A DNA stretch of 64,000 nt from Candidatus Binatia bacterium (GCA_963666315.2 CAXXHG010000043.1:352001-416000); one strand, 5' to 3'; shown: positions 34,149 through 53,156, numbered from the stretch's first letter. Translations and numbers: made by a program. The notes: generated from the letters alone by a model not told the origin.

Positions 34149-34233
34149 GATAAGTTGGTCTGAATTATTTTGTTTCAACTTATAAGTTCCATTTATTTTT
34201 CCATCGTTGCAGCGAGGAGCGCAGAATCCCTGC

Positions 34234-34261
34234 TTGCTCTCCATCTTCATCCGGCTATGAT
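34234..34261 (+). promoter_or_regulatory. Probable original tRNA-Arg promoter
   Basis: TTGCTC-16 bp-TATGAT about 20 bp upstream of the tRNA 5'-half copy. Confidence 0.45.
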
Positions 34262-34278: not shown

Positions 34279-34321
34279 CGTGCCCTCGTAGCTCAGGAGG
34301 ATAGAGCACCGGATTCCTAAT
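34279..34321 (+). repeat. att site: 5' half of tRNA-Arg(CCT), direct repeat of 45735-45777
   Basis: 43-bp identity CGTGCCCTCGTAGCTCAGGAGGATAGAGCACCGGATTCCTAAT, ending just past the anticodon loop. Confidence 0.92.
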
Positions 34322-34880
34322 ACTATAACTGCCCGTTACATGGAGTGATATCAAGTAGTAAAGTAGCATACAGAGCGTACTCACCGTTGCGTTTCTGCCT
34401 TCCTGCTATCTCCTGATATCACTCCATATCTCCCGTTATACCATCTGTTTGGGCACCCCCTTGGGCACAACTGTCTGCGCCAATAACGTGTGATTGAGGC
34501 GTGGCGGTACCTATTGACCTAAGGGGGTCAGGAAGTCCGGTCACGTCAAAAGCGGCATTGGCCTGGATTTGCCCATGGGTATGCCCTAACTGGGAGACGG
34601 TGCCGTCAACACGGCAGACCTGCACGCCACCCTAGGCCAGCTACATTCCTACGCTCAGCTAATTGCAGATCGTTGCGTAGTCAGACTTCATTGCGACGCG
34701 GAAGACCAGCCTCAGCAGAGCTTCTAAAAATCCGACCTGGAATTGGTTTGTGAACCCGACGTAGACAGTGAATCACGCAAGTGCACGCAGGGGGCTTTCC
34801 TCATGAACTGGTTTGTATTGCGAATCGATGCAGGACCTTGGTAAGGAAAACTTATGCAACGTCTCGTGTTCGTGCTGTAG

Positions 34881-35330
34881 GTGCCCCTGTTGGTACTCGT
34901 CGTGGGGTTCGCCCAAACAGGGACCTGGGAGCAGTTAGGCTCGAGCTTCGTTGCGGAAGGCTCCGGGGATTACCTGGGGCATTCTGTCGCAATCTCCTCC
35001 GACGGAAATCGTGTGGTTCTGGGAGGACAATACAACGACGGTGCAGGACACAACGCTGGCCATGTTCGAGTGTTCCAGTATGGCGGAACGAATTGGAGCC
35101 AACTTGGCGAAGATCTTGACGGCGAAGCGACAGAAGACCAATTCGGGTACGCAGTTGATCTGTCGTCAACATGGGGTCTCGATACTGGTCTTGCTGCTGG
35201 CGTTGTTCTCATTGGGTGCCGCGGCCGCGTGGGCTCAGTCGGCAGGCTGGACCCAAGTAGGAGACACTTTTGTCGAAGAAGCATGGACGGGTACCCAGCG
35301 GTCTCATCCATCGAGACTGTTCTGATATAT
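34881..35330 (+). pseudogene. FG-GAP-repeat surface protein fragment(s)
   Basis: WEQLG.....GDYLGHSVAISSDGNRVV.G, WSQLGEDLDGE...DQFGYAVDLS. Confidence 0.65.
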
Positions 35331-35479
35331 CGCTTTGATGAGTTATGGCGAAACGATATGGCCGCCTGAAGTCGTCAATCGGCGCGGCCACATTGTCTGC
35401 GTGTTTGTTTGGACGGCGCTTGGCATCGATGATGTTCCTCATACGGCTCAAACGTGGAGCGGTCCTGATCTTCCATGGG

Positions 35480-35761
35480 GCGACGCTGATTTACAATGAT
35501 GATATTGTGGAAACTGATCAGGATGTGCCGGTAACGATCCCAGAGGCAGACTTGCTTGCCAATGGTACGGATGTGCACGGAGATAGCCTGAATATTACTG
35601 CAATCGACAAAGCAGTGAAGGGGAGAATCCGTATCAGCGGAAACGGGATCATAAACTTCATGACTGGTCGGCGTTTCTCCGGTGACGGATCCTTTCAATA
35701 CACGATTGATGCTGGCAACGGTGGAACCGATACGGCCACCGTGACGATGTCGAGTCCTTAA
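35480..35761 (+). pseudogene. Cadherin-like/Ig-like (Big_9 type) domain fragment
   Basis: DD.VET.QD.PVTI...LLAN..D..GD.L, F.G..SF.YTI...NGGTDTATVT. Confidence 0.6.
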
Positions 35762-35779
35762 AAAGAAGGAGGAGGTATT

Positions 35780-37039
35780 ATGCGGCCAACGTCATGGGCG
35801 GGAAAAGTAGCCGGCCTTTTTAGCGCTATTTTCGCTGGGATGTGTCTGGCTGCAGCGTTTAGCTATGCGGGAGATAAAGCAGGTATTTCTCAGCCTTTAG
35901 CTGGCTTTTCCGGTCTGCAGCTCGGCTTGTACGAGGCCGGGCTAGAGGAGTTCGAGCGACACTTTCGCGCTCGGGATGGGCTTGGGCCACAATTTAATGA
36001 AAACCCGTGCCATTCTTGCCAAGATGAAGGAGGTATTTCTCAACCTTTAGCTGGCCTTTCCACTCAGCAGCTCGGCTTGTACGAGGCCGGGCTAGAGGAG
36101 TTTGAGCGACGCTTTCGCCGTCAGGATGGGCTTGGGCCGCAATTTAATGGCAACTCGTGCCATTTCTGCCATCGTCAGCCGTCCGTTGGCGGCTCAGGTC
36201 CTCGCTATCGGAGTAATTTCAACTTTGCGCATGGTAGCGATCTGCTCGAACTCGAAGGAGGACCGCTGCTCCAAGTGAAAGCCATCCGTGGGGAACCAAG
36301 AGAACTTATTCCAGCCGCAGCAACAAATTTCTCGCTGCGCAAAGTTCCTCCGCTCCACGGCCTGGGCTTGGCGGAGGCCATTCCAGACAGTCAAATAGAA
36401 GCCGTCGCCACCCAAAACGGTGGAAAAAGTGTCCTCACTGAAGACGGCCATATGCAGCGTTTTGGTTCACAAAATCAGGTCGTTAGCCTCAAACAGTTTG
36501 TCATGGGTGGATTTGCTCGGGAACTTGGCATTACGGAAGACGAAAATCCTGAGATCTCTCAATCTATAGAGAACGTTCTCAACTTTATCCGCTTTCTGGC
36601 TCCACCTCTACGCGGAGAAATAAACGAAGACGTTCTGCGTGGCGAAGAAGTCTTCACACAGATTGGATGCGCTGACTGCCACACGCCTTCATTTACGACT
36701 GCGCCAGGCCCGTTCACCACGGCTAGCGGTGAGGTCGTCGATGTCACGGCTATGCAAAATAAGACGATCATGCCGTATTCAGACTTCCTCCTCCACGACT
36801 TGGGTCTAGGGCTCGACGACGGCGTCCCGTTGCACGGGGGATCTAGCGCAGAATATCGAACCATACCGTTGTGGGGACTCCGCTTCCGCAAAAACAAGCT
36901 GATGCATGATGCCCGAGCAGCCAATTTCCGTCAGATGCTGCTCTTTCATGGAGGTGAGGCAGCGGTAGCGAGAGATGAAGCGATGAGTCTTCCGCGTGAA
37001 GACAGCCAGGCTTTAGAGAAATTTTTAAAGTCGCTCTGA
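35780..37039 (+). CDS. Secreted di-heme oxidoreductase (DHOR/thiol oxidoreductase) family protein
   Basis: Signal peptide, DGLGPQFN, CHFCH, GCADCH, PYSDFLLHDLG, RTIPLWG, MHDARA, HGGEA; strong RBS GGAGGAGG. Confidence 0.85.
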   Translation: MRPTSWAGKVAGLFSAIFAGMCLAAAFSYAGDKAGISQPLAGFSGLQLGLYEAGLEEFERHFRARDGLGPQFNENPCHSCQDEGGISQPLAGLSTQQLGLYEAGLEEFERRFRRQDGLGPQFNGNSCHFCHRQPSVGGSGPRYRSNFNFAHGSDLLELEGGPLLQVKAIRGEPRELIPAAATNFSLRKVPPLHGLGLAEAIPDSQIEAVATQNGGKSVLTEDGHMQRFGSQNQVVSLKQFVMGGFARELGITEDENPEISQSIENVLNFIRFLAPPLRGEINEDVLRGEEVFTQIGCADCHTPSFTTAPGPFTTASGEVVDVTAMQNKTIMPYSDFLLHDLGLGLDDGVPLHGGSSAEYRTIPLWGLRFRKNKLMHDARAANFRQMLLFHGGEAAVARDEAMSLPREDSQALEKFLKSL

Positions 37040-37360
37040 ATACTAGCTAGCCCATCGGCAACCTGTATGAGGGTCATATCGACGAACCTTAGACCAAAAT
37101 TCGATATGGTCATTTGACCCTCCCTGGATATTTGCTCATCACGAAGACGTTTTTTCTTAATGATCGGGTGCACATGAGGACTACGAAAGGTTTTTCCTCT
37201 TGCCGATGTGTACCCATTGTCATTCAACCATTCTGCTATCTGTTTAAATGTCCAACCCTTGCCTCGAAAGTCTGATACCGGATCGTAAAGAAATTGTTGG
37301 TAATTGGAGTAGAGCGCGACCCATAGAGTTGATGTGCGCAGATTTACGTCGAAGGTTAAA
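37040..37360 (-). pseudogene. Recombinase-domain (serine recombinase associated) fragment
   Basis: GWTFKQIAEWLNDNGYTSARGKTF...V..I motif; no N-terminus. Confidence 0.55.
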
Positions 37361-37480
37361 ATTGAGCCGAGTCATAATAGTCGATTCACCGCTGTCCTGG
37401 ATCGCTTTCTTCCGCACTGGCAGCAGCGGCGGGACGAGCTGAATCGTTTGCCAGTCCGGCATGAGGAGTGGGGATATTAA
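37361..37480 (+). pseudogene. M48/YgjP-like metallopeptidase C-terminal fragment
   Basis: IEPSHNSRFTAVLDRFLPHWQQRRDELNRLPVRHEEWGY*, matching the region after HExxH in this family. Confidence 0.6.
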
Positions 37481-37677
37481 GTGCGAGCGGCTGGCCATGG
37501 CGTGACGGATAGCGGGAGCGAGTGGCGTTATTGAAACGCGGGGACGGTTCTGACGAAAAGACAGGGTCTCATAACGTCGTGATAGGCCCACACCATAATT
37601 ATTCGAGCTGGGGCGGTTTTGTTGCCGGCGATGAGAACGATGATTCAGAACCTGCAGGAAATTCTTGAGTAGAAGTC

Positions 37678-38403
37678 TTAGTCCCGCCCTGCCTCAATAA
37701 TCTTCTCAGCTAATCCAATCGGATTGGTAAAAATCGCCTCATGGCTGCCCGGCATTTGGACCAGCCGATACAGACCCAAGCGATTTGACATACGTGGATG
37801 CCAGCCCCACTCGCCCGGTGGCAAAGCGATATCTTCGGTACAGTTCAGAAAACTCTTGGGGATGTCTGATGCGTAGAACTTCTTCATGTCGAGCTTGTCG
37901 CGATAGGGCTGGTACGGCTCAGGCGAGAGACGTTCGTAGGCGGATTTGGCGAGTGCTAAATCCGCATCATTAATAAAAGCGTCGCGCCAAATCGGGAACG
38001 GCAATACGATCGTATAATCGTTCGACTCTTTTACTAGCTCATCAAAAAGCTCGTGATAGTGAGATGGAACTTCATCCATCAGACTATTGCCATCCTCACA
38101 CACAAACGCATTCCAAAAGACGAGACGCTTGATCCGTTCCGGGATGGCAGGCGCTACCTGAGAGATAAGGGTGCCACCAAAGCTGTGGCCGACAAGGACA
38201 ATATCTCTCAAGTCTTCTTTAACAATGAAATCAATAATCGACTGCGTACACTGGGCGTGATTGACATTTTTGTCCACGCCTTTGCCATGCCCGGCGATGG
38301 TCGGACCAAAAGCGGTATGGCCTTTCCCTTCCAAATGCGCGATCACCGGCTCCCAGGCCGACCCATCGTGCCATGCACCGTGGACCAAGACAAATAGAGA
38401 CAT
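37678..38403 (-). CDS. Alpha/beta hydrolase (salicylate esterase-like)
   Basis: LVHGAWH, GHSFGG, EDIAL, GSHE. Confidence 0.9.
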   Translation of the reverse strand: MSLFVLVHGAWHDGSAWEPVIAHLEGKGHTAFGPTIAGHGKGVDKNVNHAQCTQSIIDFIVKEDLRDIVLVGHSFGGTLISQVAPAIPERIKRLVFWNAFVCEDGNSLMDEVPSHYHELFDELVKESNDYTIVLPFPIWRDAFINDADLALAKSAYERLSPEPYQPYRDKLDMKKFYASDIPKSFLNCTEDIALPPGEWGWHPRMSNRLGLYRLVQMPGSHEAIFTNPIGLAEKIIEAGRD

Positions 38404-38586
38404 AGCTATCCTCCTGGGTGCTTTCGTATGACATGCCGATGGGAACTGTCAATGCATCGCCCCCGGCTTCTCCCACCCCAATCAGGATGAGAACAGTGTA
38501 CTGCAGTTCGGTACGTCAGTATCCGGAGGATCACTCAATGTTGCCTCCGGCATAACTTCTTCGGTTAGCGGCGGCAGTGGGAGAAA

Positions 38587-38834
38587 ATGCAGGAAGAAGC
38601 CTCGGCTGTTGACTTCAGCCCTGGTTCCCTCGACCTGTTGGCTGGCTCGGTCGGCAACGACGATGACCGGGCGATACTCGACGAAGAACAATTGCAGGCT
38701 GAAGAGGACGCGCAGTTCGAGGCTGCTTCTGCTGCCACGATGGGACCGATTGAGGATTTGTCGGCCAAGCAATTGTTTGAGCGCGAGCAGCAACTGCTCC
38801 AGGAAATGACAGATATTGCGGAGCCGCCCGCGAG
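38587..38834 (+). pseudogene. Fragment resembling DISARM SNF2 helicase DrmD
   Basis: LDLL.G....DDDRA.L.EEQL.AEEDAQ.EAASAAT...LFEREQQLL.EMT.IAE; recognised from memory only. Confidence 0.4.
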
Positions 38835-38836
38835 GC

Positions 38837-39571
38837 CTAATCCAGTCCCTGCAGATTCTCAAGAATATCCGCCGGCTCTAGGCGAATGGCATAATTCGCG
38901 TCCACATGAGCAAGCTTGATAGTCCGATCTGTACCAATGACGTAGGTCCCGGGTATCGGGAGCTGCCAGACGGCGCCGCCATTATGATCGGGTAGCTTAA
39001 TTCCTAATGCCGCGTACGCTGTTTGAAGCTCATCAACGAGCCGAAATGCGAGTCCGAATTGCTTGGCCACAGTGTTGCCCACGTCGCTGAGGACCTCAAA
39101 CTTGAGGCCAGTCCTCTCTGCAATGGTGAGCGAGTTATCTGGTGTTTGCGGAGAAATGGCAACCAACGAGGCACCCTTAGCTAGTATCTCCGGCAGATGT
39201 TTTTGGTAAGCCTGCAACTGCGGGTTACAGTACGGTCACCACGCGCCTCTATAAAAGGCGACCACGACGAGCCCTGTGACCAAGAGGTCGGAAAGCGAAA
39301 CGGACTCTTCGCGGACATTGGGTAAGCTGAAATCGGGCGTCGTGTCTCCCACCTTCAAGGCTGTTTTTGCGATGCCGGACTTTACCTGGTCTTCTGTTGT
39401 TCGCACTACAACACCAAGAACTTCTTTGGGTAACTTGGGCAGCATTTCTTTCTGAAATGCTGCAATTTGTTGTTTGAGCTCGCTATCGGGCCCAGTCCGC
39501 GGGACCTTTTTGGTGCAGAACTCAATCATATCCGTAACAATCCCCGCGCCGGGTTCCATTTGACCGCTCAT
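38837..39571 (-). CDS. Peroxiredoxin-like (AhpC/TSA) selenoprotein, UxxC, read through UGA at 39236-39238
   Basis: ORFs 39236..39571 and 38837..39217 are in frame: FYRGAW-UGA-PYCNPQLQAYQ; the family motif is FYRGxWCPYC; hairpin follows the UGA; selA/selC are in the window. Confidence 0.72.
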
Positions 39572-39599
39572 AGAAATACACCTTTCCGAAAAGAATGAC

Positions 39600-40596
39600 T
39601 GCAGCTCCGCGAGCTTTGCCGTTTGCGTAGGCGGGTCAGGTTGCTTGCTCCCCGGGCTCTTTTTTACCGATGGGGCTGTCGGTTTCGGAGGAGTTGTGCG
39701 CGATACGGAAGGGACAAAGGCGGACGATGGGCGCGGTTCAGGAACATCACCACTCTCTCCTGGTAGGTTAGTTGGCTGAGGCGGCGTTTCATCTGTTACA
39801 TCAGAGGACTTTCCTTTGATTCGGCTACGGTTGACCGCTTGGAAGGAGGCGGTGGGTCAGGCAGGAGTGGGACTGGCTCCTTTGTCTCCCGCTTCGCTGT
39901 CTCTTTATGCTGGACGGGGAGTTGTCCTTCTCCTTCCTTCGGATTGTCTAATTCAGAAGAAGCGTCTGAGGGCGGATCGGGTGGTATAGCGGACAAATCC
40001 TTCGGAATGCCAACAAAGGAAGAATCCTGCTTTGTAAGTCGTTGCCTCTGCACTCCTCCCTCATGAACTGGTGTCCATCCAACGTAGCCTACTACGGCAA
40101 GGGCGAGGAGTCCGGCAGCGCACATGCGTGCATAACGCCAACGGCTCTGAGGTGCTTCAAAGAGCTGTGTCGGAAGTACGATTTTATTGCTCTGGGGCTT
40201 TTTGGTTACATCCGCTTCGAGAAATTGCTCCGATGGAAGGGATGCTGCTGTTAACTTTGTCTCTTCGTCCTGTACGGTTTCTGGGGTAGGGGGTTCTTGC
40301 GAAGGCTCTCGCGATGCTTCCTGATCTTGCTGCGCTCTTTCAATAGGGTCTGTCGTCCCGACAGTGTCGAGTCCTCCCTCGGTGCTGAAGTCGTCATCAA
40401 GCTCTTCGAGCACATTCTTTGCCCTTCCCATTTCTACAGAGAGATCAAAGAGCTTCTGACGGATTTCGACGTGGTGAGAATCAAGAGCGAGTACTGCCCG
40501 GTACTCAGCCTCAGCCTCTTCCAGTCTACCCTCCTGCCTGAGACGCTCACCGTTCTGAATGTGATTAATTAGGGGATCACTCTCCTGGTTTGTCAT
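39600..40596 (-). pseudogene. TPR-containing, single-TM, Pro-rich protein, frameshifted/truncated
   Basis: N-terminal TPR-like helix pair (G.LEEAEAEYRAVLALD), TM, Pro-rich linker that continues in another frame past the stop at 39796. Confidence 0.5.
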
Positions 40597-40864
40597 GGTG
40601 TTTTTGCTGAGTATTCCACGAAGTTATCTAAGGAAATGGCTCTTCATTCGCCCCGCGACATAATCCCGTCTCCCCGTATTCCATTTCCTATTTTTGCGTG
40701 TATCGGTATCGCAGAAACTGGGGCCGTGCAAGAGAAACGCCCTGCCAGACTTCCATAATCGATTGTAGGTAAGCCCCAGGCTAGATATCGACCCGGTTCC
40801 GGGTCCATTTCATCTGACCCCAGCACTGTTTTGCACCCTTCACATCACCGACCTGTCGAACAAA

Positions 40865-41270
40865 GTGGCTTTGATGAACGGGACCGAAGTCGATGTGGTG
40901 CCCCTACCCTCCCTATACCGGCGGCTTGGTCCGGACGATGTGCGCCCTTTGTATCCGTTTGCACGTGATTTTGTTCTTCAGCTCCGTCTTGAAAAGGAGC
41001 TGCACGAGGACTGTCGCGTAGAGACCACGTTCCGATGGATACCGTTGACAGGCGGCAGCTTTAATGTCAGTCCGATGACCGCAAGAGCGCGTTACTCGAT
41101 CCTGCGCATACGCGGAACGCTGTTCGATGTTTTTACGATTCTTCTGCTGTTGACTGGAAGCTAGGATTAATCGACAAGGTCTTGTTCTGCCCTAATCGCG
41201 ACACACTATTTGTGAGACGAGGCAAGCAGAAGTACTGTACCCCTCGCTGCACACAGCACGCGGCAGGCCC
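40865..41270 (+). pseudogene. CGNR-like zinc finger protein remnant
   Basis: CPNRDTLFVRRGKQKYCTPRC after stops/frameshift. Confidence 0.4.
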
Positions 41271-41525
41271 ACGCGATTTCCAGGCCGCAGCCTGGGGGGG
41301 AATGGAGAGGACAACCCGATGTCCCGTAACCCCCAGAGAATCAAGGCTTTTCGCCTATTTTCGGCGGGTTACGAAACTCATAGTGTGGGTATTGGTAAAC
41401 AGCAATTGTTCACCGTCGAACGCGCAGAAGTCAGTGAGCGTTCCACCGTTGTCGATGTTAATGAGTCTTCCCACGGATTGTCTTCCTATTGAGAGACGAA
41501 ATGTACGCCTTGGCTACAAGGCGCG

Positions 41526-42335
41526 TTATGCGCTTTCAATGTCGTCGTAATCTCCATGGCGCCCTTTGCCACTGCTGAACCGCGCGGCGCCAGCGAGGCC
41601 TTCGGTCTCGACGATGTCGATGCTATTTCCCCATTCGGTACGCAGTGCATCGGCGACCGGCAAGCCATGCTGCCGATAGACCGAGCGACGGTCTGCTCGC
41701 ACGCATTCCTGCGGAAAGCGTGCAATCTCGTGGGCGAGTGCCTCGGCCGACTCTCGCGAGCTACCGTCAGCGACCACCTGTTCGCAGGCGCCGATGCGCA
41801 GACACTCGTCAGATGGGACTTTCCGTCCGGTCATGATGATTTCGAGCGCACGTCCCTGGCCGACCAGTCGGGGCAGGCGCACGGTACCGCCGTCGAGCAG
41901 GGGAACCCCCCAGCGTCGACAGTAGACACCAAAATAGGCGCTCTGTTCCATCACGCGGATATCGCACCACAACGCCAGCTCGAAGCCGCCCGCGACGGCC
42001 GGGCCCGCCACCGCAGCAATCACCGGTTTCGACAAGTCAAGCCGTGTCGGTCCTATGGCACCGCGTGGCGGCTTACTTCCATCCGCCGGAAAGTCGAGTT
42101 CACGGAGCGGTTTTGCGCTCCCTTTGAGCGCGCTCGCATACTTCAGATCCCATCCGGCGCAGAACGCACCGCCTTCCCCCCAGAGAACGGCCACGCTGGA
42201 ATCCGGATCAGCATCGAAACGCTCGAATGCCTCCACCAATGCATCCGCACTGTCAGGGTCCATTGCGTTGCGGGCTTCGAAGCGGCTGTGAATTACTGTC
42301 GTCACTGCACCATTTCTTTCAATGCGTACACTCAT
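41526..42335 (-). CDS. Enoyl-CoA hydratase/crotonase family protein
   Basis: RNAMD, FCAGWDL, AVAGGFELALWCD; start MSVRIER. Confidence 0.92.
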   Translation of the reverse strand: MSVRIERNGAVTTVIHSRFEARNAMDPDSADALVEAFERFDADPDSSVAVLWGEGGAFCAGWDLKYASALKGSAKPLRELDFPADGSKPPRGAIGPTRLDLSKPVIAAVAGPAVAGGFELALWCDIRVMEQSAYFGVYCRRWGVPLLDGGTVRLPRLVGQGRALEIIMTGRKVPSDECLRIGACEQVVADGSSRESAEALAHEIARFPQECVRADRRSVYRQHGLPVADALRTEWGNSIDIVETEGLAGAARFSSGKGRHGDYDDIESA

Positions 42336-42466
42336 CTCGATCTCCTTAATCGTTCGGGCTGGCCAGAAGAGGCACGGGGGGTGCTTGTCGAATTGGGTAT
42401 CCAATACTCCAAGGAGGCTTTTGTTCAGGCCATTGGGAACAATGACTCTACCAAGCGTGTCTTATG

Positions 42467-43558
42467 CTACACAAGATATTTCGCTACTGCGTGCTCATCC
42501 CATGCGAGGCCTGTCCCCGGTGTGGAGGTGGGCAGAATCTTGCCAGCTTCAATAACAGTCGGTTCTTGGAGAAAGGGATCCGCCCAGTCCATATACTCCA
42601 GCCAATGCCGCGTTGGCGTTACTGCGAGCAAGTGAGCGCTGATTTCTGGGTAGAGATGTGACGAGATAGGAATGCCGCTGGGCCCAGCCAAGGCAATCGC
42701 TCGCAGCCAGCCTGAGACGCCGCCGATTTTATTTGCATCCGGCATGAGGAAGTCCCCAGCCCCGGCAGCGATTGCCTTGGCCATGTCATGCGGTCCCCAA
42801 AAGTTCTCTCCAAGCTGAATGGGCGTTTGAGTGGATTGGCGAATGAGGGCATAGCCTGCGTAATCGTCCGCGCGGGTGGGCTCTTCGATCCAACACAGCC
42901 CCTCACCGTCAAGTGCTTGGGCCCTTTGCATGGCCTCAGGAACGGACAAAGACTGATTGTAGTCCGACATCAAGGCGATGTTATCGGGAATCGCGTTGCG
43001 GACTGCGCGCACCACCTCAACATCTGTTTTTACATCCGGATAGCCCAGTCTGACTTTGATGGCTTTGAAGCCTGGCTCAACAAGCGCTCTCGCTTCATCG
43101 CCGGCTCGTTCGGCACCGATAATTCCCAAACCCGTACTGTTGTAAGCCGGAATCGGTTGGGCTTTTCCTCCAAGCAGCTGAACCAAAGGAAGTCCAGCTG
43201 CTTTTGCGCATGCATCCCAGGCCGCGCTATCGATACCGGCGGCTGCCATGGCAGTAAAACCCTGTGGGCCGAGCAAACGAAAGGCTCGTTGTAATTTTTC
43301 TTCTAGGGCGAGCGGGGCAACTACTTCACCGTTGATGAGGTCGCCCAGATTGTGCAGCAGCTTGACGAGAGGTTCAAGGACAAACGCGGCATAGCAGAAG
43401 ATATAGCCACAGCCGGTAATGCCTTCCTCCGTCTCAAGATCGACCAGTACAAGCGGGACCCGAGCGACTGATCCACCCCCCGTTTGTATTGGTCTCGTCA
43501 TGGGCAGGCTGAGTGCACGGGCACGTAAAGAACGGACTGTGAGGACATGCCTGGGCAT
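42467..43558 (-). CDS. Mandelate racemase-like enolase superfamily protein
   Basis: AIKVRLG, DYNQ, WIEEP, LGEN, PD..KIGGV, SSHL, HWLE. Confidence 0.88.
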   Translation of the reverse strand: MPRHVLTVRSLRARALSLPMTRPIQTGGGSVARVPLVLVDLETEEGITGCGYIFCYAAFVLEPLVKLLHNLGDLINGEVVAPLALEEKLQRAFRLLGPQGFTAMAAAGIDSAAWDACAKAAGLPLVQLLGGKAQPIPAYNSTGLGIIGAERAGDEARALVEPGFKAIKVRLGYPDVKTDVEVVRAVRNAIPDNIALMSDYNQSLSVPEAMQRAQALDGEGLCWIEEPTRADDYAGYALIRQSTQTPIQLGENFWGPHDMAKAIAAGAGDFLMPDANKIGGVSGWLRAIALAGPSGIPISSHLYPEISAHLLAVTPTRHWLEYMDWADPFLQEPTVIEAGKILPTSTPGTGLAWDEHAVAKYLV

Positions 43559-43760
43559 GGATTCCCCTCTCTCCCAGTGAGCAGGTGAATGCAGAGTATA
43601 GCCAATGCGCTGAGAGGGTCAAGCAGGAAGGCGAGAAGTTGCTTACTATCCAGGAAGTTGTTCCCTCGGTTATTGGGAGGGTAGCAGACAGTCCTCCGGA
43701 CCGTACCAAGGTTACTGCTGTGTCCAGTTTATTTTCTTGCATCATATGACCTCCCCGTTC

Positions 43761-43839
43761 TGACGTGTCATAGGACACATACTACTCTCAACAGTTATAC
43801 CCTTTACTAGTTGACAGTTCAAGAGTGTCACGGTACGCT
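43761..43839. promoter_or_regulatory. Overlapping divergent sigma70 promoters with TGACA/TGTCA operator-like repeats
   Basis: Plus: TTGACA(43811)-17-TACGCT. Minus: TTGAAC-17-TATAAC. Palindromes TGACA-N9-TGTCA (43812-43830) and GTGTC-ATAG-GACAC (43765-43778). Confidence 0.6.
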
Positions 43840-43847
43840 TCTCATGT

Positions 43848-44609
43848 GTGGAGGTCATCATAGTGAGACGCAGAGTATCACGGCCACTTGGAGGAATACT
43901 TGGCGCTGCGATCCGCGAAGCACGAGAGACAAGACGGTTGCGTCAAGATGACCTTGCAGCGGTTGCACGAGAGGTTGGACTTCCTTGGACACGGGTGACT
44001 GTGGCAGCCATCGAAATTGGTCGCCGCAGGCTCACTCTCGATGAATTTCTGCTACTACCTGCTGTTCTGAATTTCACCGAGCTGGCCGAGCTTTTTCCAA
44101 TGGACTCGTGGGTTGGCCTTACGAAGGAAACAAGCGTACACAGCACAGAGCTGAAATACATTCTCTCGGGGAAAGCCGGGAAAGGTCATCCCGGAAATTA
44201 TGACACGCCAGCGCAGCGTAAGCTCCAAAATGAATTCCCCAGACAACAGATAAGGGACATCGTTCAAGGGACAGTCATCCCAAAGGTTGTGGAAGTGATA
44301 CGACGCGTGTGGCCAGAGGTAGAAAGTGGCGGCAATGAGTTCCTTATTCAATGTGAGATGGAAGCCAAGAGGGATGCCGAGCAGAAGGCCGCACGAAGAT
44401 TGCACGTGTCGCCCTTTGAGGTCGCCCTGGCGGCGCAGAAGTTGTGGGGGCGTTCGTTGACGGCGGAACGAGACCGGCAGGTCGCGTTTCGAGAGACCGA
44501 CGCGGCGGCAACAGGCAGACGCCGTGCCATCAGGGGCCATGTGACGAGGTTACTTGTTGAAGAGATCAGGCCGCTGGTAACAGGTGCATGTGAGGCTGAC
44601 GAGGGGTAA
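43848..44609 (+). CDS. XRE-family HTH regulator of the integrative element
   Basis: IREARETRRLRQDDLA......WTRVTVAAIEIGRRRLTLDE; start may be GTG 43863. Confidence 0.8.
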   Translation: MEVIIVRRRVSRPLGGILGAAIREARETRRLRQDDLAAVAREVGLPWTRVTVAAIEIGRRRLTLDEFLLLPAVLNFTELAELFPMDSWVGLTKETSVHSTELKYILSGKAGKGHPGNYDTPAQRKLQNEFPRQQIRDIVQGTVIPKVVEVIRRVWPEVESGGNEFLIQCEMEAKRDAEQKAARRLHVSPFEVALAAQKLWGRSLTAERDRQVAFRETDAAATGRRRAIRGHVTRLLVEEIRPLVTGACEADEG

Positions 44610-44640
44610 ACAGGGAATCACAAGGCGCAGAGGACTAAAT

Positions 44641-45725
44641 ATGCCTAAATACAGATATGGCGCAGTCAGAGTGTATCGGCGTGGCAAGACTTGGTGGATC
44701 GATTATTACCATGATGGCAATCGTGTCCGCGAATCAGCGGACACGTGTGACAAAAGTGAGGCACGGCGTTTGTTGCAAGAGCGGATGGGGCAAATAGCCG
44801 AGGGACGCTATGGGGGTCCACGAGCGGATCGGGTAACTCTGGTGGACTTGGCAAGAGGTCTTCTCGACGATTACAAGACGAATGGAAGAAAGACTCTGAG
44901 TGACGTGAAAATCCGTATCAATCTGAATTTGTTTCCATTTTTTGGAAAGCGACGGCGAGCCCAATCACTTACATCCACCGATGTGCGTTCCTACATTTCA
45001 GAAAGACAGGTAACCGGGAGTTAGCCGCCCTGAAACGAATGTATAATCTCGCCCTTCAAGAGGCGATAATTAACAGGAAACCCTATATCCCTAGTCTTGA
45101 CGAAAACACGGCGAGAAAAGGCTTTTTCGAGAGGCATGAATTTCTGTCGATGTTGTCGAAGCTGCCCGAGTATCTACGACCATCCTTCATGTTCGCGTAT
45201 CAGTTCGGCTGGAGGATAAGAAGTGAGGTATTCCCACTACGCTGGGAGCAAATTGATCTGCATACCTGCACGGTCCGTTTGGAGGTAGGGATCACGAAAA
45301 GCAAAGATGGAAGACTTATATACCTGACAAACGAACTTCGTGCCGTGTTTAGTGCCTATTGGGAACAACATCTCAGGTCTTCCCCGGGGTGCCCCTGGGT
45401 TTTTCACCGTAGTGGTAAACGTATATTCACGTGCTACAAGGCATGGCACAGGGCTTGTCGGGAAGCCGGGCTGATTGATAGGATACCACACGATTTTAGG
45501 CGGACCGCTGTGAGGAATATGGTAAGGAGCGGAATCCCTGAGAGAGTGGCTATTCAAGTGGCCGGACACAAAACGCGGTCTGTGTCTGATCGGTATCATA
45601 TCGTATCGGATATCGACCTCCAGGAAGCAGCAACACGAATGGAATCGTGTAATTCACCAGTCTTGGACACAAATTTGGTCACAGGAACCCCGTTCGCGTT
45701 AGGGGAAACCAACGTAAGTCACTAA
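44641..45725 (+). pseudogene. Tyrosine recombinase/integrase, frameshifted by a short deletion
   Basis: Arm-binding N-terminus (WWIDYY..G.R.RES); break at ERQV/NRELAALKRM near 45012-45024; catalytic R (GWR), K, HDFRR, GHKT, Y (DRY). Confidence 0.88.
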
Positions 45726-45737
45726 TTTCATTAACGT

Positions 45738-45811
45738 GCCCTCGTAGCTCAGGAGGATAGAGCACCGGATTCCTAATCCGGGGGTCGTGCGTTCGAATCG
45801 CGCCGGGGGCA
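45738..45811 (+). tRNA. tRNA-Arg(CCT)
   Basis: Cloverleaf: acceptor GCCCTCG/CGGGGGC, anticodon arm CCGGA-TTCCTAA-TCCGG, T-arm GTGCG-TTCGAAT-CGCGC; CCA not encoded. Confidence 0.95.
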
Positions 45812-45922
45812 TGTCCTTTCTTTTCAATATCTTATGCAATTTCATAGGTTTTCCAGCTATCTAGAGCAACCCAGTTTGTTGTCCAGTTTGTCTCACCAGT
45901 CCGGTTTATCCAGCTATAACTA

Positions 45923-51981: not shown

Positions 51982-52077
51982 TGGCGGAGAAGAGATGGAG
52001 TCGAACCATCCGCGCAACGTTACGCCACGCAACTCGGTTTTGAAGACCGGTACAGCCACCGGGCCATATCCTTCTCC
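51982..52077 (-). tRNA. selC: tRNA-Sec(TCA)
   Basis: 8-bp acceptor stem GGAGAAGG/TCTTCTCC, anticodon loop CTTCAAA, long variable arm, T-arm GATGG-TTCGACT-CCATC, ends GCCA; convergent with selA. Confidence 0.93.
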
Positions 52078-52112
52078 GCATAATGAAATCAAGCATTTAG
52101 CATGTGGGCGAA

Positions 52113-53156
52113 TTAGCGTCCAGATCCGTTTGCCAACAATTTGCCAACAGATTGGCCCACGGATGTAGGACGAGGACCGTTCACGACGTTTTTGAGCGCT
52201 TCAAGGGAGGGTTTATTGTACCTGGCGAAGACCTTATCAGTGCGGTGGCCGGTTATCGCCTTGATATAGTCCCTATCCCACCCCTCTCCGACCTTTCTGG
52301 TGACAAAGGACCGGCGCACGTCATGGAAATGGACGTCTTCGAGACCTGCTCTTGCGACCGCGTTATTGAATGACGTCTGGATACTTTTGAACGGTACTCC
52401 TCTGAGGGACAAAAATACATGTTGATAGATTTCGGTCACTTTCCTTCTTTCACGGCGTAGGTCCAGGAAGATTTCTCGCAGGATATCGCTTATGGGAACC
52501 AAGCGTTTGCGGCTCGTTTTCGTGTCATCGCTCAGGAGTGTGATAATGTCATTCCTAAGATCGACCCGAGTCCAGGTCAGCCTAAGAATTTCACCCTTCC
52601 GCATCCCAGTTTCCCACGCACACAACAAGATTGGTTTCAGATGCTCTGCTGCTTGTTCGTAGAGACCAGCGTACTCTTCTTCTGTCAAGACTCGATCTCG
52701 CTCGTTATCCTCTCGAAACAATTCGACCGCTGGGAGTTTCTCTAAGATCCCCTCCTTCCAAGCCATACGCAAGATGTGCCGAAGTAATGCAAGCTTGCGG
52801 TTGCAAGTCGCTGGGCTTTGCAACCGCTCTGGATTCCTGCGGCATGGTGTCTTTCGGAGTTTTAGACCGAATTCCTTGATCCTTGCGTAGGTAATGTTCG
52901 CTAAGGGTAAAGGACCAAATTCCACATTGAGGAACTGCAACAATAATTCGTCGTCCCTGATTGTCTTTTTTCCAGCGGCCAGTTCCAAATATCTGCATCC
53001 CCAGCTATGGAACGTCATCCACTCGGTTCTCCCCCTGTCGAAGTCTACTCTGCGCTCATTCTCGCCTAGGAGGAGCTTTTTCTTGCTTCTCGCTCCTCGA
53101 AGATCTGTGCCCGCGGGAATCTTCCGATTCACCCCTTTCCAATCCTTGAACCGCAC
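52113..53156 (-). CDS. Tyrosine recombinase/integrase (N-terminus eroded)
   Basis: TCNRKLALLR, GMRKGEI, TK, FHDVRRS, TGH, ARY; frame continues upstream as WTTRYYVRFKDWKG. Confidence 0.85.
   Translation of the reverse strand: MRFKDWKGVNRKIPAGTDLRGARSKKKLLLGENERRVDFDRGRTEWMTFHSWGCRYLELAAGKKTIRDDELLLQFLNVEFGPLPLANITYARIKEFGLKLRKTPCRRNPERLQSPATCNRKLALLRHILRMAWKEGILEKLPAVELFREDNERDRVLTEEEYAGLYEQAAEHLKPILLCAWETGMRKGEILRLTWTRVDLRNDIITLLSDDTKTSRKRLVPISDILREIFLDLRRERRKVTEIYQHVFLSLRGVPFKSIQTSFNNAVARAGLEDVHFHDVRRSFVTRKVGEGWDRDYIKAITGHRTDKVFARYNKPSLEALKNVVNGPRPTSVGQSVGKLLANGSGR

Follow-up and report, generated by a model that had tools for sequence, protein, structure and literature searches.

Integrases prefer the 3' part of tRNA genes, and the usual explanation is that the target gene must stay connected to its own promoter. 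For the tyrosine-integrase element of Zhao and Williams, recombination is reported with the 5' part of a gene of tRNA type. Integrations on the 5' side are described as much less frequent than 3'-side integrations, and as rare in bacteria, in two reviews (PMC6563490, PMC8371274), in agreement with an initial annotation of the locus analyzed here that had called such cases uncommon, and the first of these reviews cites Zhao and Williams (2002) as a bacterial example of recombination on the 5' side. Our literature search for statistics on 5' fragments found no figures. In Archaea, the pTN3-like integrases and TKV-type elements of Thermococcales (Cossu et al., 2017; Krupovic and Bamford, 2008) are described as using the tRNA 5' half as attB; the recombinant tRNA gene follows that of the integrase, whose promoter is said to drive expression of the tRNA (PMC8371274). 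According to the same review, the pTN3 integrase comprises an int(N) moiety plus an int(C) moiety, its gene being split by integration, and elements of this type are associated with chromosomal inversions (PMC8371274). In the classification of Williams (2002), as quoted in PMC8371274 and PMC1635311, the symmetric sublocation has its crossover at the anticodon stem-loop, where the 7-nt anticodon loop with its palindromic stem resembles an overlap region between two core sites. The island signature used by Islander consists of a tDNA, a co-oriented fragment of one tDNA end and an integrase gene between them, over a length of 2-200 kb; its configuration filter explicitly allows a 5' fragment upstream or a 3' fragment downstream (PMC4383910). 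Here we describe a bacterial tRNA-Arg(CCT) locus with a 5' fragment upstream.

Island boundaries and relatives at the same site

The window is a stretch of 64,000 nt from a Candidatus Binatia bacterium (GCA_963666315.2, CAXXHG010000043.1:352001-416000). It contains a perfect 43-nt direct repeat on the plus strand, at 34279-34321 and 45735-45777 (spacing 11,456 bp), and the chance of a 43-nt match within 14 kb is negligible. The repeat begins 2 nt before the 5' end of tRNA-Arg(CCT) and extends to nt 41 of the tRNA, thus covering the 5' half, the anticodon loop and 3 nt more. The right copy is the element-borne 5' half (attR core) and forms part of an intact, working tRNA-Arg(CCT) gene at 45737-45812 (plus strand; ARAGORN; Rfam, 63 bits), the only one in the tRNA list of this genome. 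The left copy, a 2-nt leader followed by tRNA nt 1-41, is the orphan host 5' half (attL core) and was not called as a tRNA by ARAGORN or Rfam. The region between them, 34322-45734, is an 11.4-kb genomic island at the single tRNA-Arg(CCT) gene: there is a full tDNA, a co-oriented 5' fragment 11,456 bp upstream of it and an integrase ORF between the two, and the length falls within 2-200 kb. The integrase frame stops at 45725, 11 nt ahead of the tRNA and on the same strand. The orphan keeps the host upstream DNA, and the 5' part and upstream DNA of the working gene are element-borne. Three proposals of the initial annotation are borne out by these data: a 43-bp repeat from the 5' end of the tRNA through its anticodon loop, an element that leaves its target tRNA with two copies of the 5' half (which is also seen in the junctions of relatives), and an intact tRNA close behind the integrase stop codon, the gap being 11 nt.

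The orphan half had also been placed behind a native promoter. We found a promoter-like pair, TTGCTC-16 nt-TATGAT, at 34234-34261 (plus strand) in the native upstream region of the tRNA, which presumably served as its promoter and now stands ahead of the orphan half. The pair is not listed by the standard scan because it matches the sigma-70 consensus at only 8/12 positions; the distance from its end to the tRNA start is 19 nt both here and in the relative G024. In G024 the same upstream region directly precedes an intact, identical tRNA-Arg(CCT), from which we take the upstream region of the left copy to be of host origin. The initial annotation had suggested a search for the empty site in relatives. 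G024 provides this on the 5' side of the tRNA, where it has no island, but the site is not truly empty since the 3' side carries arm-type repeats of a canonical element. Two further relatives share this junction of orphan half and island, at an identical position: in G020 the orphan carries 5/43 substitutions and the tRNA itself is intact, and in G009 the orphan is perfect and the island end is divergent.

Attachment site architecture

Candidate arm-type integrase sites are found near both ends of the island. A tandem pair TTGGGCAC / TTGGGCAC with a 12-nt period lies at 34449-34468 (P arm, plus strand), and it matches the pair TTGGACAC / TTGGTCAC, also with a 12-nt period, at 45663-45682 in the 3' coding end of int (P' arm, plus strand). 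The Leu-CAA and Arg-ACG islands of the same genome show an equal left/right correspondence with different repeat sequences, and nearly all loci of the integrase family have element-specific tandem pairs at the same place, the 3' end of int. As judged from these repeats, the island would have a lambda-type attP, with arm-type sites that flank the core, match each other and are specific to the element. The 8-mer TTGGNCAC is not over-represented in the window (10 found vs. 8.5 expected), so the argument for arm sites rests on the paired and equally spaced arrangement. Just inside the left end, a 14-bp inverted repeat at 34340-34353 and 34414-34427 (plus strand) is a candidate hairpin or protein-binding site. 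It is kept in G020, shows one change on both sides in G009 and has a similar long counterpart in the Leu-CAA island; the fold z for the 183-nt stretch holding it is only -1.66 against shuffles. With Rfam at E values up to 1 the tRNA was the sole match, and neither the orphan half nor the hairpin matched any family.

At the right junction, the motif TAAGTCACTAATTTCATTAAC (45715-45735, plus strand) includes the int stop codon and is a degenerate version of TAAGTCATTGATTTCATTAC, the motif of the clade. On the opposite strand, the clade motif fits what we take to be the IHF consensus at all specified positions, and the copy in the window differs from it at two. The motif adjoins the tRNA in both orientation types, and it is probably an IHF-type bending site of attP and not a promoter. 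On the 3' side of the tRNA (45821-45891, plus strand) we found the reverse complement of the junction motif at 45821-45836 and a tandem CCAGTTTGT pair at 45871-45879 and 45883-45891. By comparison with 3'-side junctions elsewhere, this segment may be what is left of a second element of this family, one inserted canonically (on the 3' side).

Transcription of the tRNA

The arrangement suggests the following course of events. A lambda-type tyrosine integrase would have inserted the island in the anticodon-loop region of tRNA-Arg(CCT) in reversed orientation, the element attachment site being located immediately 3' of int. The 5' half that belonged to the host would be left, with the host upstream region, as an orphan at the far end of the island, and the working gene would be composed of the element's 5' half and the resident 3' half, 11 nt behind int. 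At the sequence level, this is supported by the 43-nt repeat, by the relative that retains the native upstream region, by arm-type repeats that match between the two island ends and by a geometry found throughout the family. The upstream DNA of the working tRNA gene is entirely element DNA, and element promoters may plausibly transcribe the tRNA. Its likeliest form would be the 3' end of an XRE-int-tRNA transcript, from which RNase P and other processing enzymes would cut the tRNA, as has been proposed for the archaeal pTN3-like elements; the host promoter would yield only a short, non-functional half-tRNA RNA. The XRE-type helix-turn-helix regulator gene at 43848-44609 (plus strand) is a 253-aa ORF with matches to PF01381 (9.2e-06) and PF13560 and a weak match to a HipB-type antitoxin in NCBIfam. 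In front of it, a promoter-like TTGACA-17 nt-TACGCT (43811-43839, plus strand), read from the sequence, is a candidate start of the transcript; it is unlisted by the promoter scan because the second hexamer matches at only 3/6 positions. A terminator-like hairpin inside int (45383-45399) would oppose read-through.

It is also conceivable, if rather unlikely, that the element brings a small tRNA promoter of its own, situated at the junction and overlapping with the int end, in which case one promoter was swapped for another and normal tRNA levels would be independent of int. An independent promoter just upstream of 45738 was what the initial annotation had named as able to overturn its reading, and the evidence on it is divided. 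An A/T-rich TAATTT box (45723-45728) ends 8 nt before the tRNA, several distant reversed relatives, such as L058 (TGTTATAAT, near-perfect), L062 and L036, have strong -10-like boxes 6-9 nt before theirs, and the family precedes single-copy tRNAs that must be well expressed. Against such a promoter, the consensus form of the clade's junction motif lacks a TAnnnT hexamer and no -35 partner was found. Sigma-70 consensus scans detected no convincing promoter before 45737 and, within 260 nt upstream of 12 element-restored tRNAs, no sigma-70-like site (at least 8/12) at a consistent place, compared with a conserved one at the native site; these scans discriminate little, as even the native pair scores under the standard threshold. 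We also considered the junction motif itself as the tRNA promoter and rejected it: the motif stands beside the tRNA 3' end in canonical elements as well, hence it belongs to attP.

Less probable still, and doubtful in our view, is that little or no tRNA is made from the gene behind the broken int and that this loss is nearly neutral, tRNA-Arg(UCU) reading AGG in its place. The lack of a recognizable promoter within 260 nt, the terminator-like hairpin, the presence of tRNA-Arg(TCT) and the small share of AGG among Arg codons (3.7%) all favor a silent gene. The state of the gene does not: the tRNA scores 63 bits in Rfam, is identical to that of G024 and is intact in G020, whereas the G020 orphan has accumulated its 5/43 substitutions. 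That the tRNA is kept while this orphan drifts argues for purifying selection on the working copy.

Survey of integrase orientation

We examined whether other integrases share this orientation, as the initial annotation had asked of the whole clade. This genome has 25 PF00589 matches, 10 of them within 255 bp of a tRNA; seven of these 10 integrases lie on the tRNA 5' side and are co-oriented with it (reversed) and three lie on the 3' side and are convergent. Perfect orphan 5' halves of 43, 47, 41, and 30 nt were found for Arg-CCT, Ser-TGA, Leu-CAA, and Arg-ACG, respectively. Among 17 further loci from the genus, nine integrases are co-oriented with a downstream tRNA, two are convergent and six have no tRNA. 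The family survey covered 80 loci from many phyla, among them Binatia-, Acidobacteriota-, Desulfobacterota-, Methylomirabilota-, and Nitrospirota-type genomes: 23 loci are reversed, 35 canonical, 17 without tRNA, four at a contig end and one of another kind. The reversed mode thus accounts for 23/58 tRNA-adjacent family loci and the canonical mode for 35/58, where the reversed class beyond this genome, G044 and G046 is defined by int-tRNA adjacency and orientation without mapped orphan halves. The unrelated genomes G044 (two cases) and G046 (one case) have orphan 5' halves upstream of the tRNA and on one contig with it; candidates in G045, G047, and G048 are ambiguous, being on other contigs or inseparable from the tRNA itself. 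Arg-CCT-adjacent relatives from other phyla are reversed in 10/10 cases. In the integrase tree the window's integrase falls in a clade of nine rows (SH-aLRT 95), all nine reversed, and the tree of 56 rows needs 7-13 orientation switches. Reversed insertion appears from this comparison to be the normal mode of the subclade, not an accident. The same family occurs in the same arrangement before single-copy tRNA-Leu(TAA), Arg(ACG), Ser(TGA), and SeC genes, which suggests that the reversed arrangement must allow ordinary tRNA supply.

A more speculative joint reading, which we rate as improbable, is that the family repeatedly flips its target orientation and that the reversed mode makes a host tRNA, including single-copy Leu(UAA), Arg(ACG), Ser(UGA), and SeC, the last cistron of an int operon, so that the host would depend on element transcription for this tRNA. 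The RNA 3' of int would then sense the integration state and set the stability of int mRNA. When the element is integrated, the RNA behind int would be a full tRNA that RNase P could cut; in the excised circle it would be a half tRNA followed by the conserved hairpin of the other arm. Such a sensor would be the mirror image of sib retroregulation in phage lambda.

Integrase and cargo of this copy

The integrase of the island is a pseudogene: an uninterrupted frame of ~360 aa is absent, and two ORFs lie in different frames on the plus strand. The N-terminal piece (44641-45024; PHROG_1, 1.7e-12; PF12167 below cut-off) comprises the arm-binding domain and the start of the core-binding domain and ends at a premature stop after a frameshift. 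The C-terminal catalytic piece starts at 45006 or 45039 and ends at 45725; for 45039-45725 the PF00589 match scores 61.5 bits (cut-off 27.1, E 1.1e-16) and the PHROG_1 integrase match has an E value of 3e-24. The two-frame state had been missed in the initial annotation. Alignments with intact 364- and 368-aa paralogues indicate a gap of ~6-7 residues at the joint, corresponding to an out-of-frame deletion that removed roughly 25 nt. The split sequence is identical in contigs of runs X1, X2, and X5, which come from three studies, and the integrase copy of G020 is also broken (two stop codons). In the alignment, GWRIRSE, TKSKDGR, HDFRR, GHKT, and DRYH of the catalytic piece stand at columns where the family is invariant or conserved. 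We take these columns to be the catalytic Arg, Lys, His-x-x-Arg, His/Trp, and Tyr, all of them present; with all catalytic residues kept, the inactivation may be recent.

The cargo region (34700-43800; Pfam, PHROGs, NCBIfam) contains fragments of FG-GAP, cadherin-like and di-haem oxidoreductase (DHOR) genes at 34881-37039 (Pfam) and, on the minus strand, an alpha/beta hydrolase (37678-38403), an AhpC/TSA gene broken into two ORFs (38837-39571; Pfam), a TPR protein (39796-40596), an enoyl-CoA hydratase (41526-42404), and an enolase-superfamily dehydratase (42467-43558), the hydrolase, TPR, hydratase and dehydratase genes being assigned by profile searches. Cargo segments have paralogues elsewhere in the genome and in the genus. 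Low-copy dispersed repeats of ~100 bp occur at cargo borders, in 2-6 copies and with no shared sequence. Searches of the 18-20 island ORFs against Pfam, PHROGs, and NCBIfam returned no excisionase/Xis family, although small or novel RDFs can be missed by them, and no phage or conjugation/transfer family; a prophage identity was rejected, as PHROGs shows no phage genes. Because int is frameshifted, cargo genes are broken and excision and transfer genes were not found, we regard this copy of the island as a decaying, probably immobile remnant. Against this reading, a paralogue integrase could act in trans.

The same evidence bears on the proposal of the initial annotation that integration and excision toggle the tRNA between host and element promoters and thereby tune AGG decoding. 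Integration does exchange the promoter region, and related elements have come and gone at the site (a divergent island in G009, none on the 5' side in G024). A reversible switch is nevertheless very unlikely, and it is unsupported because int is split (and carries two stop codons in G020), the AhpC gene is disrupted and the searches yielded neither an excisionase nor transfer genes. In addition, AGG is rare (2.4 per 1000 codons) in a genome that has a tRNA-Arg(TCT), the tRNA gene is intact in both states, and no contig in four runs joins across the island as an empty site or circle would, an observation of little weight since contigs drop rare forms.

The genome is a 47-contig metagenome assembly, 92% complete, with close copies of cargo segments elsewhere. 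Logan contigs of public runs end inside the tRNA and none bridges either junction under a 31-nt rule; record 16 of run X2 extends from 34292 into the island with 30 nt in the tRNA half, just below the rule. A mis-assembly of repeat and island, which the initial annotation had itself raised, is in spite of these features extremely improbable, given that the separately assembled G020 and G009 share the orphan-half/island junction, that island contigs from runs of three studies show no differences, and that the arm-type repeats, which match between the two ends, agree with a real att pair.

Discussion

We favor, with a probability of about 0.8, the reading that a lambda-type tyrosine integrase inserted this island in reversed orientation at the anticodon-loop region of tRNA-Arg(CCT), that the present copy is decayed, and that the tRNA is now presumably transcribed from element DNA. 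The "wrong way round" orientation is an uncommon arrangement that has already been described and that is routine for this integrase family, and the locus is an ordinary, decayed example of the 5'-side case. Its wider interest lies in the survey, which suggests that within one large integrase family the reversed mode is no rarity (23/58 overall, 10/10 for Arg-CCT and 7/10 in this genome) and that this family places integrases before essential single-copy tRNAs. If this is confirmed, the promoter argument for the 3' preference would be weaker than assumed, island finders that expect 3' fragments would miss many islands in these phyla, and tRNA expression in such genomes might partly depend on mobile-element promoters.

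Compared with canonical integration at the anticodon loop as it is described (PMC8371274, PMC1635311), the island shares the crossover at the anticodon stem-loop, the position of int beside the core and the restoration of an intact tRNA. It differs in that the identity block extends from the crossover to the 5' end and not to the 3' end; since the block reaches the 5' end, the original promoter is lost to the working gene. Islands that fit the Islander signature are termed "putatively active" in PMC4383910, whereas the integrase frame here is broken. As in the case of Zhao and Williams (2002) in its cited form, the element replaces the 5' part of a tRNA-type gene together with the upstream DNA; in contrast to that case, the mode is seen here across a subclade and many tRNA identities, and this copy has decayed. 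The target orientation is the same as that described for pTN3. The likeness is one of description, the sequences not having been compared, and we do not file the island as a member of that group. The pTN3-like elements, as described, are archaeal and differ in several respects: here the whole of int is upstream of the core, the split in the gene is due to a deletion and not to integration, and the attP has lambda-like arm repeats.

An Island Between Two Copies of the tRNA-Arg(CCT) 5′ Half

A repeat search found 43 nt repeated directly and without mismatch, at 34279-34321 and 45735-45777, and ARAGORN placed tRNA-Arg(CCT) at 45737-45812 (63 bits in Rfam). The repeat begins with a 2-nt leader and continues through tRNA nt 1-41, so that it takes in the 5′ half and the anticodon loop together with the next three bases. 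This confirms the initial annotation, which described a direct repeat running from the tRNA 5′ end through the anticodon loop; its two related observations also hold, since the intact tRNA lies on the same strand just past the integrase stop (11 nt from 45725) and a promoter-like pair (TTGCTC, 16 nt, TATGAT) can be read at 34234-34261 before the displaced, or orphan, half. The gene is the sole CCT gene in the 4.99-Mb, 47-contig genome (G000), which has one tRNA-Arg(TCT) gene. The island between the copies occupies 34322-45734 (11,413 bp) and carries near its right end an XRE-type regulator gene (43848-44609), followed by the integrase gene (from 44641) as its last gene. We refer to an integrase on the 5′ side of the tRNA and co-oriented with it as reversed, and to one on the 3′ side and convergent as canonical.

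The origin of the two copies was examined in relatives. In G024, the closest relative with usable sequence (flank ~92% identical), the matching upstream region, hexamer pair included, lies directly 5′ of an intact, identical tRNA-Arg(CCT). The DNA in front of the orphan at 34279 thus comes from the host, as does the orphan itself, the original 5′ half of the gene; all DNA upstream of the working tRNA belongs to the element. The site in G024 is not naked. Just downstream of the tRNA there are a reverse-complemented junction motif (see below) and tandem repeats like the arm-type pairs, pointing to a canonical element 3′ of the gene. A second relative, G020, shares the left end of the island at ~90% identity with an orphan half in the corresponding place; this orphan has substitutions at 5 of 43 positions and the working tRNA is unchanged, so the orphan is free to decay. 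In G009 a perfect orphan is followed by a clearly divergent yet related island end. The orphans and island ends of G020 and G009 indicate that related elements have occupied the site more than once in the species group. At ~34200-34215, G000 lacks ~225 bp between the thiolase terminator and the promoter-like pair that are present in G020 and G024 and partly in G009, and Logan contigs of three public sequencing runs (X1, X2, and X11) have variant forms at 34204-34224.

Anatomy of the Attachment Site

A tandem pair with a 12-nt period, TTGGACAC/TTGGTCAC, is located at 45663-45682 within the last 75 nt of the integrase gene, and a matching pair, TTGGGCAC/TTGGGCAC, also with a 12-nt period, at 34449-34468, 128-147 nt inside the left end. 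Their 8-mer is not enriched window-wide (10 found, 8.5 expected). The paired left/right arrangement recurs in the Leu-CAA and Arg-ACG islands of G000 with quite different repeat sequences, and nearly every locus of the family (integrases related to that of the window) has a tandem pair at the integrase end. We interpret the pairs at both island ends as putative arm-type sites for the integrase in a lambda-like attP. Between the right-hand pair and the tRNA is a junction motif of ~21 nt that includes the integrase stop codon (clade form TAAGTCATTGATTTCATTAC; the window copy is degenerate). It is present whatever the tRNA identity and is found reverse-complemented at the tRNA 3′ end in canonical elements, so it forms part of the attachment site. 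On its other strand the clade form fits the IHF-site consensus. Close to the left end, on its inner side, is a 14-bp inverted repeat (34340-34353/34414-34427).

Downstream of the tRNA, its 3′ flank (45821-45891) contains a reverse-complemented junction motif and two CCAGTTTGT repeats in tandem; glmS follows within 190 bp, and no integrase remains ahead of it. The stretch looks like the arm and signature of a canonical, 3′-side element of the same family. Beyond the window, 69 kb to the left (G000 contig C43, 328454-328512; 2955-3013 of locus L111), the 3′ part of tRNA-Arg(CCT), from the anticodon stem on, recurs with 13 nt of flank as a perfect inverted copy of 59 bp. In four relatives (G001, G012, G018, and G021), homologs of its outer flank are the genes after tRNA-Arg(CCT), and its inner flank is homologous to the glmS neighbor. 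Either the 69-kb segment would be inverted relative to these relatives, with one breakpoint in tRNA-Arg(CCT), or it was mis-oriented by the assembler between the two 59-bp inverted repeats. The island is unaffected in both cases, since all of it is to one side of the 59-bp repeat.

Reversed Integrases in This Genome and Genus

G000 has 25 PF00589 matches, 15 of them with no tRNA within 3 kb and 10 within 255 bp of a tRNA. Seven of these 10 precede the tRNA on its 5′ side in the same orientation (Arg-ACG, Arg-TCG, SeC, Ser-TGA, Arg-CCT, Leu-TAA, and Leu-CAA); the other three converge on it from the 3′ side (Met-CAT, Arg-ACG, and Leu-TAA). At four of the seven reversed sites there is a perfect orphan 5′ half, co-oriented with the tRNA: Arg-CCT (43 nt), Ser-TGA (47 nt, 4.4 kb upstream), Leu-CAA (41 nt, 8 kb upstream), and Arg-ACG (30 nt, 10.6 kb upstream); searches of G000 for SeC, Leu-TAA, and Arg-TCG halves gave none. 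In the genus, 7 of 28 genomes match the catalytic piece of the integrase (the C-terminal ORF, 45006/45039-45725) at E 1e-20 or better. Among 17 loci, the window's own excluded, a co-oriented tRNA comes right after the integrase in nine, a convergent one in two and none in six; at one of these six (L025) an orphan half comes after the integrase.

Several of these loci deserve description. A second reversed pair is present in the window on the minus strand (51982-53156), where an integrase ORF of 347 aa (52113-53156) is directly upstream of and co-oriented with tRNA-SeC (51982-52077). This integrase is only ~22% identical to the family's first sequence; the locus shares the junction motif and has a tandem GTTGGCAA pair at 52130-52148. 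On contig C24, locus L020 encodes an uninterrupted 412-aa integrase (949-2187), 64% identical to the window's catalytic piece, with Cys at the family's catalytic Tyr (DRCH vs. DRYH). It is followed after 11 nt by the sole tRNA-Leu(TAA) of the genome (2199-2286), on which a second, broken integrase converges from the 3′ side. Contig C37 (32600-41830; L025 and L029) has tandem reversed islands in the order intact 361-aa integrase, orphan Leu-CAA 5′ half, 8-kb island, integrase fragment and working tRNA. On contig C22 (32198-89275), tRNA-Arg(ACG) is flanked on both sides by islands whose integrases face it: a reversed 10.6-kb island with the 30-nt orphan on the 5′ side, and a canonical island of ~46 kb with a 45-nt 3′ fragment (98% identical) on the 3′ side.

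Orientation Across Phyla

A profile of five family members recovered 378 relatives from species-representative genomes, and geometry was determined for the best 80 (39-63% identity), from MAGs labeled Binatia, Acidobacteriota, Desulfobacterota/Deltaproteobacteria, Methylomirabilota, Nitrospirota, Gemmatimonadota, and others. Among these best 80 of 378, a co-oriented tRNA follows the integrase within 400 bp in 23 and a convergent one in 35; 17 have no tRNA, four end too early and one has a tRNA elsewhere. In the same set Arg-CCT is always reversed (10/10) and Phe-GAA always canonical (12/12), and both modes are seen for Leu-TAA, Met, and Asp. The tree had 56 rows, 51 of the 58 tRNA-adjacent loci plus five rows from G000 and G009; seven loci with internal stops or short sequence were left out (L034, L062, L074, L079, L086, L087, and L099). 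Nine rows, all reversed, form the clade that contains the window's integrase (SH-aLRT 95). Over the whole tree the orientation label requires 13 changes, at least seven of them forced by well-supported branches; shuffled labels gave a mean of 18.3 changes, and 3 of 500 shuffles were as low as 13. The question whether the clade always targets 5′ halves thus has a clear answer: the window's subclade is uniformly reversed, as is the Arg-CCT lineage across phyla, and the wider family often switches. Frequent switching would fit a crossover in the symmetric anticodon stem-loop, going by the description of that sublocation in PMC8371274.

Five genomes (G044-G048) were searched for tRNA fragments to check that adjacency reflects real reversed integration. 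In Binatia-labeled G044 (C9, 95037-129105), two co-oriented Arg-CCT 5′ halves are found 29 and 34 kb upstream of the integrase-adjacent tRNA on one contig, and Deltaproteobacteria-labeled G046 has one co-oriented 5′ half 5.6 kb upstream; G045, G047, and G048 gave ambiguous results. The two orphans before one tRNA in G044 make a tandem array of reversed islands.

The Window's Island Is Probably an Immobile Remnant

The integrase gene is in two frames (44641-45024 and 45006/45039-45725). Compared with intact paralogs of 364 and 368 aa, the joint is ~6-7 core-binding-domain residues short, an out-of-frame deletion of ~25 nt; all catalytic residues are present in alignments with the family. Logan contigs from runs of three studies carry the identical split sequence (X1, 43484-45764; X2, 43257-45764; X5, 44169-45704, with one 1-nt gap elsewhere), so the break is not one assembler's slip. 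The orthologous integrase of G020 has two stop codons, and its match begins only at residue 53 of the 228-aa query.

The cargo, metabolic in character, is broken in places. An AhpC/TSA gene now spans two ORFs, a di-haem oxidoreductase domain is reduced to its C-terminal third, and there are FG-GAP and cadherin-like fragments; alpha/beta hydrolase, enoyl-CoA hydratase, and enolase-superfamily dehydratase genes are apparently whole. No phage, conjugation or excisionase families were found among the island ORFs with Pfam, PHROGs, and NCBIfam. The flanking genes for thiolase (400 aa) and glmS (609 aa) are uninterrupted, so the assembly as a whole is not prone to such breaks. Judged from these sequences, this copy is a remnant in decay and is probably immobile. 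Within the cargo, the dehydratase segment 42443-43616 is 97% identical to C1:36793-37966 of the same genome and the broken AhpC (38843-39493) is 81% identical to C26:7370-8020. Several cargo borders coincide with dispersed ~100-bp repeats of low copy number (2-6), at 34557-34697, 35285-35481, 37361-37483, 41293-41390, and 43619-43702. Two tandem 150-bp units, 88% identical (35872-36171), lie inside the 419-aa ORF with the di-haem oxidoreductase C-terminus, and an X11 contig has a form skipping 150 bases (35880-36031), equal to one unit.

The proposal that integration and excision act as a switch on AGG decoding is unsupported for this copy. To be reversible, a switch would require a functional integrase and, as a rule, an excisionase; this copy has neither, and the tRNA gene is intact in both states. 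AGG is rare (2.4 per 1000 codons, 3.7% of Arg codons, in 1120 long ORFs) and tRNA-Arg(TCT) is available. The family also precedes single-copy tRNAs such as Leu(TAA), Arg(ACG), and Ser(TGA), where a tRNA-starving configuration would presumably not be tolerated; a switch is unlikely as a general function of the family.

Expression of the Restored tRNA

Bacterial tRNA genes require an upstream promoter. A standard scan of the plus strand from 43500 to 45737 found no sigma-70-like site. In a laxer scan (at least 8 of 12), the native pair ends 19 nt before the tRNA start in G024 and before the window's orphan alike, and the 260 nt upstream of 12 element-restored tRNAs gave scattered hits at differing places. 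The gap between integrase stop and tRNA in the window's subclade is only 11-13 nt, too short to hold a terminator or a further promoter outside coding sequence. The simplest interpretation is that the tRNA would be processed from an XRE-int-tRNA transcript, and a good candidate promoter (TTGACA, 17 nt, TACGCT) can be read at 43811-43839 before the XRE gene. We give such co-transcription a probability of a little over one half. Evidence against it includes a terminator-like hairpin inside the integrase gene, an A/T-rich box (TAATTT) ending 8 nt before the tRNA, and near-consensus -10 boxes at the junction in some distant reversed relatives. A promoter of the element's own at the integrase/tRNA junction would be a markedly less probable driver of tRNA-Arg(CCT). 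The junction motif itself is rejected as the promoter, as it also stands at the tRNA's 3′ end in canonical elements.

Relation to Known Systems

Integration into the 5′ half is of a known kind, and the window's locus is a new, decayed member. PMC6563490 calls recombination with the 5′-distal part considerably rarer, with Zhao and Williams (2002) cited for bacteria alongside several archaeal cases, and the Islander algorithm, as outlined in PMC4383910, explicitly takes a 5′ fragment upstream. The scale of the reversed mode in this integrase family may be new. A parallel to the proposed co-transcription is provided by the pTN3-like elements of Thermococcales, in which the tRNA behind the integrase is said to be expressed from the integrase promoter, an arrangement rarely met in bacteria according to PMC8371274.
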